Of a stretch of DNA of 55,785 nt, positions 5,160 to 29,885 are shown piece after piece. Every line of letters begins with the position of its first letter. Within the stretch, counting starts at the first letter, position 1. The position numbers and the translations under genes are program-made. The notes under the pieces were generated by a model. It saw only the letters and a list, made by a program, of their open reading frames with translations, made no database searches and had not been told where the DNA came from. The DNA lies in the NCBI GenBank assembly GCA_030647555.1, contig JAUSJG010000030.1:1-55785 (forward strand), read 5' to 3'. This stretch comes from a bacterium. GTDB lineage: Bacteria > Patescibacteriota > Andersenbacteria > UBA10190 > CAIZMI01.

Positions 5160-6887
5160 TTAATTTACCACAGTTGTGTTGGTCTGGCTTGAAAAGAAAT
5201 TTGTAATCAGGGGAGCAATTATTTTAACAACACTTTCGATGACATTTTGTGGCATACCGCTTTGAAAAAGTTGTTGGATAATTTTTACTAAAACCGTGAC
5301 ATCGGGAGAGGAAGTGGGGTCTTCGGTTTTTTTGACGCAGGCGCCATTATAGGCGATTTGAACACGTTTTTGTGTTTGGGCGACGCAGGCGTTGGGTTGG
5401 GTTTGGCTATTGATATCACATACCGGCGCATAAGTATTCGGGCACGTGGCTACTGCCGGACTCGGTGTTGGGTTGGGTGTAGGGCTGGGGGAAGGATTAT
5501 TTTGATTCCCCTGCTGGTTACCGCCCTGCCCGTTGTTACCACCACCGTTGTTTCCTCCGCCATTATTACCATCGTTGTTCGCGCCTTGGTTGTTTGGTTT
5601 ACCGCGATTTGGGTCAGGTGATTTAAATTGACAATCCGGTGTAATAATTATCGGCTTATTATCCAGGTCCATAACAATGGACCTTTTTAGATAAATAAAA
5701 GGTTGGACTTTTTTTCCGTTTACCGTGTACGCGTGTCGTCCCGCGACACCACTGGCCAAAGATTCCTGGGCCTGTGCTTCCGTGATCATGCCGTCTATTT
5801 TGCCTGTGTCGTTGAGCCAAGTTATTTTTTCCTTTTCTTCGGGTTTCATTTTTTGGTTTTCAACCATGAGGTCATAGCTTGAACCAGCATCCGCGGTCGC
5901 TTTCTGCGTTTTTCCGTAGGTGGGATCTTTTATTGCGTCTGTCGTATCAACCTTACGCAAAAAATGCATTCGCGCGTCGCGTAATTTTTTGTTAATGTCG
6001 GATTCTTCGATTTTGTGGTTATCATCTGCTTTATTTTGTTCTCCACGGGGGTAAACCCCTGTGTTGCCAAGCATCCCTGGGTTTTGATAGCCGGTGGATT
6101 GGCCCGGTGTTACTACGCCACAATAACCGCGATTCTTTTTTATCCATTCATCTTTGGCTTTTTCATCGCGAAAAAACATAGGTGTATCATGGTTCAAAAT
6201 CAATTCGGCTTTATTATTATATTTTCCATTTGCTTTCAAGTAATCTATAAGTTCTCCGACAGTGATTACACCATCTCCATCCTTGTCCGCGCCACCGTTA
6301 CTTACGGCATTTGTGATGCGGTTTCCCATATCCGGGGCATAGCCAAGTTGATAGGCGGCAGAAGAGCTTAAGACGGCGCCGTTGTAAAGCCCGCCACCCA
6401 TAATTGACTCAACATTGTATAAGCAAAAAACGGTTCCTGACCCACACGAATCCAGAATTGTCGTGCCAACCAATTGGTTTTGTTCCAAAACTTGGGACGC
6501 CATCCATACTTGGTCGGCTTTGGAAAAAATTGAATCAGTACCGAGGCCATTTGTAACACCATGGCCGGCAAAAACAAGAGTGGCCGCGGCGGCTTCCGCG
6601 TATGGGGCAACGGCAGCATTAATCATTCGAAGGCCTTCTTCTCTATCTCTTACGTTGGAAACATCAACCCTCACAAACTGCACACCTGGAAAGTTTGCCA
6701 TGTAGCCATATTGTTGTTTATCAAGACCGGCAATTAAGCCGTCATTTGTGTGATTAACCAAGACAACAAGACTGGTGATGGGACCCACCGCGTATGTTGT
6801 GGGAGTAAACGATAACGAAATTAATAAAGCAAAGACGGCAAATATCGCGATGCTTTTAATCAGATTGTTTTTAATAATGATTTTCAT
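5160..6887 (-). CDS. secreted caspase-fold (clan CD-like) peptidase domain + EF-hand-like loop + GGGNN linker + degenerate Kazal-like knot + family C-terminal tail
   Basis: signal peptide; TLVFAGHG...(about 40 aa)...ILDSCGSG His/Cys dyad spacing; DKDGDGVITVGELIDYL; GNNGGGNNGGGNNG; C-x7-C-x10-C-x15-C; ATGA overlap with the upstream gene. Confidence 0.6.
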   Translation of the reverse strand: MKIIIKNNLIKSIAIFAVFALLISLSFTPTTYAVGPITSLVVLVNHTNDGLIAGLDKQQYGYMANFPGVQFVRVDVSNVRDREEGLRMINAAVAPYAEAAAATLVFAGHGVTNGLGTDSIFSKADQVWMASQVLEQNQLVGTTILDSCGSGTVFCLYNVESIMGGGLYNGAVLSSSAAYQLGYAPDMGNRITNAVSNGGADKDGDGVITVGELIDYLKANGKYNNKAELILNHDTPMFFRDEKAKDEWIKKNRGYCGVVTPGQSTGYQNPGMLGNTGVYPRGEQNKADDNHKIEESDINKKLRDARMHFLRKVDTTDAIKDPTYGKTQKATADAGSSYDLMVENQKMKPEEKEKITWLNDTGKIDGMITEAQAQESLASGVAGRHAYTVNGKKVQPFIYLKRSIVMDLDNKPIIITPDCQFKSPDPNRGKPNNQGANNDGNNGGGNNGGGNNGQGGNQQGNQNNPSPSPTPNPTPSPAVATCPNTYAPVCDINSQTQPNACVAQTQKRVQIAYNGACVKKTEDPTSSPDVTVLVKIIQQLFQSGMPQNVIESVVKIIAPLITNFFSSQTNTTVVN

Positions 6888-28024: not shown

Positions 28025-28110
28025 TATCAGTAGTATAGCACAGCAGTTCGTATTTTACAAAATACGCAAGATTCGCTACCCTACATATAACAATACTTGC
28101 TATTGTTAAT

Positions 28111-28426
28111 GCCGCGGTAGCTCAGCGGTAGAGCGCAGCCCTGGAAACTTCGGGGCCCGGTACAGCAATGAACCGTGAATAACTGGGTGAATTCGGGGAA
28201 ACTTTCTTTCGTCTTTGGAAAAACAAAGACCCATGCCAGCCCATGGACAGAAACAATCCCGAGCCGAGCCAAAAAGGGTAACAAGTTTTTTGGAAGGTGT
28301 AGAGACTAGCGGGTGAGTCCCAACGATAATCCCGCACTAGCGCCCAGCTCCGTGATATTACGGATGATGAGATAGTCCAAATAAAGGAAGAGGCTGGCGT
28401 CGACAGTTCGACTCTGTCCCGCGGCA
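28111..28426 (+). tRNA. tRNA-Phe(GAA) interrupted by a 244-nt group I intron
   Basis: exon 1 GCCGCGGTAGCTCAGCGGTAGAGCGCAGCCCT + exon 2 GAAGAGGCTGGCGTCGACAGTTCGACTCTGTCCCGCGGCA gives a canonical cloverleaf with loop CTGAAGA. Confidence 0.8.
28143..28386 (+). ncRNA. group I intron (ORF-less) in the anticodon loop, between U33 and G34
   Basis: 5' exon ends in U that can pair CCCU with the internal guide GGGG (28152-28155); intron ends in G; R/S-like core GTAGAGACTAGCGG (28299-28312) and GAGATAGTCC (28369-28378) forming a P7-like GACUA/UAGUC. Confidence 0.75.
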
Positions 28427-28553
28427 CTCGAGATTTGTTTCGCTTTGCGAAACAACCAAGGGTACACCAAATGACCAAACATCCTGTTTGGTCATTTGGC
28501 ACAAGAATCGAAGAACTCCGAGAATGAGCGCCAAGAGGCGTGAATTCTCGGAG
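28427..28553 (-). repeat. multi-hairpin trailer element, copy 2 (directly 3' of tRNA-Phe)
   Basis: CTCGAGATTTGTTTCGCTTTGCGAAAC identical to the tRNA-Leu trailer, then hairpins CCAAATGACCAAAC..GTTTGGTCATTTGG and CTCCGAGAAT..ATTCTCGGAG. Confidence 0.7.
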
Positions 28554-28565
28554 CCAATTTATACA

Positions 28566-28590
28566 AAAATCCGGCTTTCGCCGGATTTTT
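28566..28590. terminator. bidirectional intrinsic terminator
   Basis: AAAAATCCGGCTTTCGCCGGATTTTT between convergent tRNA-Phe and 28617-29303. Confidence 0.7.
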
Positions 28591-28616
28591 CGCTTATACT
28601 CCAACTTTCTAATAAA

Positions 28617-29303
28617 TTAGAAGCTTAGAATGTTTTGCGCCGTAACGGTAATCGTCTGGATGAAGTGACTAATATCGGTAAAGATGCTAGTTACTGGAAT
28701 GAAGACAGTACCTTCTGAATGGGTTTTGCCCGTCAGAGTTTGACTTTGTGCCGGGTCGATGCGTCGAATGACCGGTGCTGGAACCACTACGAAATTGTTT
28801 GATTGCGTGAGGGTGCCAGTGGCCGCGCTTTGGTTTTCTCCAACTTTGGAGAATTGCGCGATCGATGAGTTTTCGCTCAAGTTGGCCGTCGCATCATTTG
28901 TGTGTTGCGATTGGGCAACGCTACCGATCGTGTCGGACGCGACATTGCTGAAGCCTGTACCTGAAGAACAAGGGGCTGGGTTACCACAACCGGAAACGCT
29001 GTTCCAAGTTAGTGCTGAACCGACGTTACCACCCTGTGCTTGTGCAAACGAACCATTCGAGTGCGTCAATGATTGGCCGGCGGTCGCTGCGGATTGCGCG
29101 ACGGCGTTATTGCCGAGTTGAGTTGCGGTGCTAACATTGGCATTCTGTTGCGCCGTGTAGGACGCAGTGCCAGCTCTTTCACCGCTTTGTGCTTGGTCAA
29201 AGGAGACTAAAGCCCATGAGCCGTTTCCGGCCATTGCTGAAGATGCAACCAAGGACAACGCCGCAATTGGAGCAGTAACTAATAGATTTTTGATTTTGAA
29301 CAT
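28617..29303 (-). CDS. secreted Q/N/S/A/T-rich low-complexity protein
   Basis: signal peptide ...SSAMA; strong SD GGAGG; loose Q-x-G-x-x-N-x-A-like repeats (TQLGNNAVAQS, AQAQGGNVGSA). Confidence 0.6.
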   Translation of the reverse strand: MFKIKNLLVTAPIAALSLVASSAMAGNGSWALVSFDQAQSGERAGTASYTAQQNANVSTATQLGNNAVAQSAATAGQSLTHSNGSFAQAQGGNVGSALTWNSVSGCGNPAPCSSGTGFSNVASDTIGSVAQSQHTNDATANLSENSSIAQFSKVGENQSAATGTLTQSNNFVVVPAPVIRRIDPAQSQTLTGKTHSEGTVFIPVTSIFTDISHFIQTITVTAQNILSF

Positions 29304-29673: not shown

Positions 29674-29801
29674 CTTCGAAACTTCGCGCATCCGAGCACG
29701 AAGATTTCGAAGTTCTTCGATTCTTGTGCAAAACAACCAAACGGGATGTTTGGTTGTTTTGTGTACATTGTATGGTTTCGCAAAGCGAAACAAATCTCGA
29801 G
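29674..29801 (+). repeat. multi-hairpin trailer element, copy 3 (directly 3' of tRNA-Leu in gene sense)
   Basis: CTTCGAAACTTCGCGC..GCACGAAGATTTCGAAG, AAAACAACCAAACGGGATGTTTGGTTGTTTT, GGTTTCGCAAAGCGAAAC, CTCGAG junction. Confidence 0.7.
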
Positions 29802-29885
29802 TGCGGCCGATGGGACTCGAACCCACACGAGCTAAGCTCACACGCCCCTCAAGCGTGCACGTGCTACCAATTTCGTCACGGCCGC
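29802..29885 (-). tRNA. tRNA-Leu(GAG)
   Basis: GCGGCCG acceptor, anticodon arm CACGC-TTGAGGG-GCGTG, long variable arm, T arm GTGGG-TTCGAGT-CCCAT; no encoded CCA. Confidence 0.85.

Follow-up and report, generated by a model that had tools for sequence, protein, structure and literature searches.

An interrupted tRNA-Phe gene

The segment 28111-28426 of the analysed DNA (a stretch of 55.8 kb from a groundwater bacterium, hereafter the window) carries on its plus strand a tRNA-Phe(GAA) gene whose anticodon loop is split by a 244-nt insert (Table 1). Joined in silico, the two exons (28111-28142 and 28387-28426) give the canonical 72-nt cloverleaf with the loop CUGAAGA that the first-pass annotation had described, and ARAGORN identifies this spliced sequence, to which CCA and A-flanks were appended before the run, as tRNA-Phe(gaa). 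In the unspliced DNA the gene is missed both by ARAGORN and by the Rfam tRNA model, and neither program finds a second tRNA-Phe in the 55.8 kb, as had been stated. The insert follows U33 (28142) and its last nucleotide is G (28386), again in agreement with the initial description. Since standard tRNA finders miss the split gene, genomes carrying it seem to be without tRNA-Phe, which distorts estimates of completeness and codon usage.

Table 1. Features of the split tRNA-Phe gene and its intron (positions in the window)
Feature	Position	Strand	Basis
tRNA-Phe 5' exon, 32 nt (acceptor 5' strand, D arm, anticodon-stem 5' strand, C32, U33)	28111-28142	+	sequence; ARAGORN on spliced product
P1 hairpin: exon GCCCU (28138-28142) and intron GGA (28143-28145) with UUCGGGGC (28149-28156); 5' splice-site wobble U33.G28152	28138-28156	+	covariation
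Group I intron, 244 nt, without homing-endonuclease ORF	28143-28386	+	RF00028 full-model match; family alignment and covariation; 88% identity to Phe.2Ug seed
P10 guide CUUC, complement of 3'-exon GAAG (28387-28390)	28148-28151	+	family pairing counts; position-37 covariation
P2 hairpin, GNRA tetraloop GCAA (28165-28168), one A.A mismatch in the window copy	28158-28175	+	7/7 pairs with compensatory changes; MFE fold
P3 5' strand CUGGGUG, pairs with 28341-28347	28183-28189	+	covariation
P4 (28193-28198 with 28257-28262; UCGGGG/UCCCGA) enclosing P5, P5a (28211-28230) and P5b (28231-28246)	28193-28262	+	P4, alignment pairing; P5/P5a/P5b, MFE fold
P6 (GCC with GGU) and P6a hairpin, loop GGG 28276-28278	28263-28298	+	strong P6a covariation
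J6/7 and P7 5' strand (GUAGA GACUA)	28299-28308	+	invariant, 111 sequences
Inserted P7.1-like hairpin, 27 nt, between P7 and P3': stem GCGGG/CCCGC, conserved 17-nt loop UGAGUCCCAACGAUAAU	28309-28335	+	covariation of 5/5 stem pairs
P3 3' strand CGCCCAG	28341-28347	+	covariation
P8 hairpin, closing pair C28348-G28366, bulged U28365	28348-28366	+	covariation of outer pairs
J8/7 and P7 3' strand (AUGAGA UAGUCC), pairs with 28302 and 28304-28308, forms P3/P7 pseudoknot	28367-28378	+	invariant
3' tail AAAUAAA and omega G (28386), no P9 hairpin	28379-28386	+	sequence
tRNA-Phe 3' exon, 40 nt (G34 A35 A36 G37 A38, anticodon-stem 3' strand, variable loop, T arm, acceptor 3' strand, discriminator A)	28387-28426	+	sequence; ARAGORN

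An RF00028 (Intron_gpI) search, the test that the first-pass annotation had proposed, matches 28133-28387 with 43.1 bits and covers all 253 positions of the model (E = 1e-9 in a 551-nt search and 1.1e-7 over the whole window). The match is thus significant across the full model and well past chance level, though it does not reach the gathering score of 50, so that a default Rfam scan missed the intron and the E-value mode was needed. According to Williams (bioRxiv 10.1101/2020.01.27.920355), who worked with cut-offs of 18-20 bits, the Rfam seeds include no bacterial sequence. RF00028 gave no second group I match in the 55.8-kb window.

The secondary structure was drawn by hand first and tested on an alignment afterwards. 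The P1 helix originally suggested, exon CCCU with an internal GGGG including a U:G pair, is found as GCCCU plus GGA paired with UUCGGGGC, and the two strings likened to the R/S (P7) core correspond to J6/7-P7 (GUAGAGACUA, 28299-28308) and J8/7-P7' (GAGAUAGUCC, 28369-28378). The P3-P9 fold that had been expected was obtained in part, namely P3 to P8 with the P3/P7 pseudoknot, while P9 is absent from the window copy. The minimum free energy (MFE) fold of the precursor segment (-85.7 kcal/mol, z = -2.4) shows P1, P2, P4, P5, P5a, P5b, P6a, the inserted hairpin and P8; the P3/P7 pseudoknot is beyond what such a fold can represent. The hairpin between P7 and P3' is treated as an insertion by the Rfam model, and the P5a/P5b extension occurs, among the aligned introns (the window's and those of 110 listed matches), only in the window and in locus L110.

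The T arm of the gene is of the variant GACAGUUCGACUCUGUC, and G37, in the loop CUGAAGA, is present in 67 of 111 CPR tRNA-Phe genes (110 listed matches and the window's, which is one of the 67). A37 is usual in bacterial tRNA-Phe; G37 suggests m1G37 modification rather than a modification of the i6A type.

The promoter scan detected no plus-strand promoter upstream of the gene, and the terminator scan reported one spurious minus-strand terminator inside the intron and nothing else. Downstream of the gene lie a 15-bp perfect inverted repeat (CCAAAUGACCAAACA...UGUUUGGUCAUUUGG, 28461-28499), a 10-bp inverted repeat (CUCCGAGAAU...AUUCUCGGAG, 28517-28554) and, at 28570-28590, the hairpin UCCGGC-UUUC-GCCGGA followed by UUUUU. 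The last, unreported by the terminator scan, looks like a two-way terminator common to the tRNA gene and the convergent ORF 28617-29303. In groundwater runs the word depth over 28434-28497 exceeds the expectation for a single-copy flank. A tRNA-Leu(GAG) gene on the minus strand (29801-29885) was found by ARAGORN and by Rfam in E-value mode (47.3 bits); its omission from the gathering-mode list, despite a score above the cut-off of 29, is presumably a filter effect.

Distribution, covariation and optional elements of the intron family

Related genes were collected in one scan of GTDB species-representative genomes, using a pattern that tied the P7 strands to the tRNA-Phe 3' half and contained AGACTA and ATAGTC. 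Among the 120 loci listed, at least 110 are complete tRNA-Phe(GAA) genes split after U33, with introns of 200-336 nt (median 229 in the listed complete loci), and 5 further listed loci are interrupted by contig ends. In all 111 introns (the window's and the 110 listed) a U precedes the intron and a G ends it, and all 111 sequences are distinct. The hosts of the listed matches are almost all Patescibacteria/CPR with genomes from metagenomes, belonging to Moran-, Falkow-, Magasanik-, Doudna-, Yanofsky-, Wolfe-, Harrison-, Giovannoni- and Berkelbacteria, Paceibacterota and others; the split tRNA-Phe is present in at least 115 CPR species representatives.

Four listed matches outside the CPR (L031, L045, L054 and L095; Sellimonas, Lachnospiraceae, Clostridium methylpentosum) were rejected as evidence of wider spread, being chance matches in a conserved protein-coding gene with no tRNA. 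This gene is nearly identical across genera, which suggests that it is mobile. Several other loci (L009, L012, L018, L020, L044, L056 and others) come from metagenome-assembled genomes labelled 'uncultured Gammaproteobacteria' or 'Bdellovibrionales', some of them 'binchicken'. Their tRNA-Phe genes and introns match those of Falkowbacteria or Moranbacteria exactly or almost exactly, which makes these labels doubtful. One of the 120 listed loci, L085, is a remnant: at about 6200-6460 it has an uninterrupted, odd tRNA-Phe-like gene with the T loop GUCCGAUUC and, within about 40 nt, the 3' third of a Phe intron, ending in A rather than G, and a second 3' exon. The arrangement looks like an intron-bearing gene whose 5' part was replaced.

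The 111 intron regions of the window and the 110 listed matches were aligned with MAFFT, and a structure of 58 pairs from P1 to P8 was tested on this alignment. Paired nucleotides occupy 91.5% of the cells, as against 32-50% when the structure is slid by 1-3 columns; changes on both sides occur in 41 of the 58 pairs, and none of 500 shuffles matched the observed values. Covariation is strong in P1, P2 (7 of 7 pairs), P3, P6a and the inserted hairpin, and it backs P3, P4, P5, P6a and P8. In the exon-side helix of P1, five of six pairs covary (e.g. GC:63/CG:48, CG:67/AU:44 and G1-C:68/A1-U:35 among the listed sequences), and the splice-site U.G is present in 111/111 of the same set. The P2 loop is GNAA in the alignment. 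P3 is paired in 99.4% of cells (CG:54/UA:53 and UA:56/CG:43, listed matches) and P4 in 99.8%. All five stem pairs of the inserted hairpin covary (e.g. GC:47/AU:46, listed matches), and the closing pair of P8 is CG in 100 and UA in 9 of the listed sequences; the inner pairs of P8 were poorly aligned by MAFFT. At least four contiguous P10 pairs can be formed in 105/111 listed sequences, the window having four, and the P10 guide varies with tRNA position 37 (A37:U 44, G37:C 61, G37:U 6, listed matches). P7 is paired and invariant in 111/111 listed sequences, partly because its strings were contained in the search pattern, so that covariation is uninformative for this helix. Of the 89 columns conserved at the 90% level, the window copy deviates in one, which indicates that its core is intact. 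Taken with the Rfam match, the at least 110 further genes split at the same site and the covariation of the helices bear out the initial assignment of a group I intron in a bacterial tRNA-Phe(GAA).

P9 is kept in 48 of the 111 introns (the window's and the listed matches), nearly always with a GNRA loop, and is absent in 63. In 37 of these 63 listed P9-less members (e.g. L019, L040 and L047) the intron tail can form five or more base pairs with nucleotides 37-44 of the 3' exon, a helix which puts the 3' splice site in the four-base loop omega G-G34-A35-A36. The mean pairing of tail and exon is 4.86, compared with 3.69 ± 0.14 for shuffled exon partners, and the tail covaries with the exon. In the window, 28379-28397 forms neither a tail-exon helix nor P9, which makes this copy one of the most reduced in the family, with uncertain self-sufficiency in vitro.

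A mutual-information scan of the alignment suggests that the loops of P6a and of the inserted hairpin pair with each other, which in the window would join GGG 28276-28278 to CCC 28319-28321 (alignment columns 275-279 and 428-430). This candidate L6a-P7.1 contact is GGG/CCC in most aligned sequences, with the matched changes GAG/CUC, GGC/GCC and GAU/AUC; since the tracts are homopolymeric, the paired percentage alone is uninformative, but double changes occupy 17 cells, as compared with 3.7 ± 1.8 after shuffling. In a further sub-lineage (L028, L086, L101, L072, L014, L053 and about a dozen more) two hairpins stand in place of the single inserted one, the first with a four-base loop (UUCG, GAAA) and the second with a variable loop (GCAA in L028), and the P6a loop has no GGG. 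The family provides a large and diverse natural alignment of a compact ribozyme, in which P9, the tail-exon helix, the P5 extension and the hairpins of J7/3 (one or two) are optional modules, and it shows a candidate new tertiary contact.

The nearest relative among the listed loci is L110, from an uncultured-bacterium bin, which is syntenic with the window across several genes. Between the two, identity is 90.6% in the intron region and 75-79% in the flanking genes; in this syntenic setting the higher identity of the intron points to orthology and to purifying selection on it. Near-identical words occur in groundwater, freshwater, wetland and soil metagenome runs, and contigs with related introns were recovered by the dozen from two groundwater runs and four times from one freshwater run. 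Among the variants, the change 28311 G>A in the inserted hairpin is compensated by 28333 C>U. In one DNA contig 28142 is followed directly by 28387; it represents an intron-less tRNA-Phe allele of a related organism. The intron has no endonuclease gene and, being orthologous and syntenic in L110, is probably inherited vertically with occasional loss.

Predicted splicing and alternative readings

It is very probable, judging from sequence comparison, that the insert is a group I intron with an IC3-like core and that it belongs to the Phe.2Ug class described below. The gene would be transcribed as a 316-nt precursor, and P1 would form between the guide 28149-28156 and the eight nucleotides across the 5' splice site (five of the exon, three of the intron), with the U33.G wobble at the splice site itself. 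A free guanosine bound in P7 would attack after U33; the guide CUUC (28148-28151) would next pair with the 3'-exon GAAG to form P10, and the terminal G28386 would move into the G site. The 5' exon would then attack after G28386, so that the 72-nt tRNA-Phe would be ligated, the intron released and the anticodon stem re-formed. We infer these steps from homology with the introns of Azoarcus tRNA-Ile and of cyanobacterial tRNA-Leu and tRNA-fMet. Splicing of the intron probably provides the cell with its functional tRNA-Phe and, judged from the 55.8 kb of genome covered, may be essential.

Reads across the ligated junction had been suggested as a check. The public RNA-labelled runs yielded low-depth contigs of related introns alone, with no spliced junction. 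One run, X14, whose RNA origin is a guess, contains a 246-nt contig about 94% identical to window positions 28109-28332, comprising a relative's 5' exon and most of its intron; it is either unspliced precursor or DNA carry-over. Where a community also includes intron-less alleles, any spliced-junction read would be ambiguous.

Three other readings of the locus were considered. The intron may be functional without being self-sufficient, requiring a protein cofactor or an RNA chaperone because the P9-P5 clamp is missing, a reading that seems rather unlikely and that is compatible with the group I assignment rather than exclusive of it. The absence of both P9 and the tail-exon helix from the window copy is in its favour, and protein-assisted splicing of group I introns is well documented (Hausner et al. 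2014, PMC3984707). However, no candidate maturase lies within or next to the intron, and the candidate L6a-P7.1 contact, with the P5a and P5b arms, could supply the missing stabilisation.

Much less probable is that the intron is a decaying relic which no longer splices, leaving this tRNA-Phe copy a pseudogene backed by another elsewhere. The same two missing helices, the A.A mismatch in P2, the Rfam score below gathering and the intron-less alleles that relatives carry in comparable samples might be taken as signs of decay, but all core helices are intact, only a single conserved column deviates, and the intron is better conserved between the window and L110 than the neighbouring genes. The absence of P9 from 63 of the 111 introns (the window's and the listed matches) indicates that its loss is a trait of lineages and not a sign of decay, and the 55.8-kb window contains no other tRNA-Phe.

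A third possibility, that the two tRNA halves are separated by unrelated DNA (a mobile element or the result of a chimeric assembly) or that the region is a minus-strand protein gene, suggested by a 160-aa ORF with a TTG start (28122-28604), has almost no probability, because the split gene recurs in over 110 independent assemblies, the substitutions track RNA pairing and not codons, and RF00028 matches over its full model. The ORF itself was rejected as a chance frame: only 13 of the 111 homologues (listed matches) have any frame open across the precursor, and L110 has none.

Relation to known tRNA introns

The first-pass annotation had regarded both the Phe host and the 33/34 site as extending the list of bacterial tRNA group I introns, and in neither respect is the finding new. 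Williams (2020; bioRxiv 10.1101/2020.01.27.920355) scanned about 80,000 genomes and raised the number of classes from the classical four (Leu.3Ug, Arg.5Ug, fMet.2Ug and Ile2.5Ug, each given as IC3) to 21, and the seed alignment includes 'Mba55.Phe.2Ug', a computational entry without a splicing assay. In this numbering position 2 is the 33/34 site, which is also the classical site of the cyanobacterial tRNA-fMet intron (fMet.2Ug), and the insertion site has therefore long been known. The earlier review of Hausner et al. (2014) does not mention tRNA-Phe. Lui et al. (2021, PMC8172020) reported that some tRNAs of complete CPR genomes were hard to detect owing to group I introns; read beyond the authors' own statement, the remark hints that intron-bearing tRNA genes can be sole copies. 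We found no splicing assay of the Phe.2Ug class in the literature.

By its sequence the intron of the window is one more member of the catalogued Phe.2Ug class. It has the tRNA-Phe host, the 33/34 insertion, the U at -1 and the G at omega, and is 88% identical to Mba55.Phe.2Ug over 208 aligned positions; the next seeds (Lys.2Ug, Ile2.5Ug and fMet.2Ug) are 73-77% identical. Apart from host, site and terminal nucleotides, the Mba55 intron shares with the window P1 (GCCCU with GGGGC), the core strings CUGGGUG, AAUUCGGGGAAA, AAUCCCGAGCC, GGUGUAGAGACUA and AUGAGAUAGUCC, and the inserted hairpin with the loop UGAGUCCCAACAAUAAU. The window copy differs in its P5a/P5b extension and its shorter 3' tail.

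The consensus structure of Williams (2020) already has optional hairpins between P7 and P3', with the L6a-P7.1 contact unannotated. One or two hairpins stand between the P7 5' strand and P3' in tmRNA group I introns, Lys.2Ug, Asn.4Ug and Leu.1Ug (SS_cons of the same work), and the hairpin of the window recurs in the Phe.2Ug, Lys.2Ug and Asn.4Ug seeds. The loop motif GAG..(C/G)C..AAC..AAUAA is common to Lys.2Ug, Asn.4Ug and the window, and the Asn.4Ug seed has GGC and GCC at the places matching the candidate contact. We tentatively suggest, without claiming an even chance for it, that the CPR Phe.2Ug introns and the Lys.2Ug and Asn.4Ug introns could form a distinct IC3 architecture, in which a 3-bp L6a-P7.1 kiss would clamp P4-P6 onto P3-P8 and permit the repeated loss of the P9-P5 clamp. 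The window copy would then be among the most stripped-down working tRNA ribozymes and its host's sole route to tRNA-Phe.

Subgroup IA introns have P7.1/P7.2 hairpins between P7 and P3'. An assignment to IA, suggested by the hairpin at this place, was dropped, since the rest of the core agrees in its strings with the classical IC3 seeds; by these shared strings it is IC3-like rather than IA-like. Typical of subgroup IC3 are a P2 with a GNRA loop, the lack of P2.1, a short J7/3 and a P9 that docks on P5 through its GNRA loop. The classical seeds and the window have in common AAAUUCGGGGAA, AAUCCCGA-GCC-AAG and GGU-GUAGAGACUA, and the window also has the GNRA loop of L2, but its J7/3 carries the inserted hairpin and P9 is missing, whereas the classical seeds have GA-C alone between P7 and P3'.

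Two classical introns are also close counterparts. The cyanobacterial fMet.2Ug intron (Biniszkiewicz et al. 1994, as cited in later work) is inserted after U33, as in the window, and is reported to self-splice experimentally. It shares with the window the IC3-type strings AAAYUCGGGGAA, AAUCCCGA and GGUGUAGAGACU and is about 73% identical to it in a gap-tolerant alignment; it differs in its tRNA, in having P9 and further 3' hairpins, and in lacking a hairpin between P7 and P3'. The Azoarcus tRNA-Ile(CAU) intron (Ile2.5Ug, IC3) is about 74% identical. It is inserted after position 36, unlike that of the window, and its J7/3 is GA-C instead of a 27-nt hairpin, while P9 and the P5 receptor CCUAAG/UAUGG are both missing from the window. 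The Azoarcus intron and that of the window are small, lack an endonuclease gene, interrupt the anticodon loop and have a GNRA loop in P2; they share an identical J6/7-P7 (GGUGUAGAGACUA) and the P6 form GCC-AAG-...-AA-GGU, and 48 of the 111 Phe introns (the window's and the listed matches) keep a P9 of the Azoarcus type, nearly always GNRA-looped.
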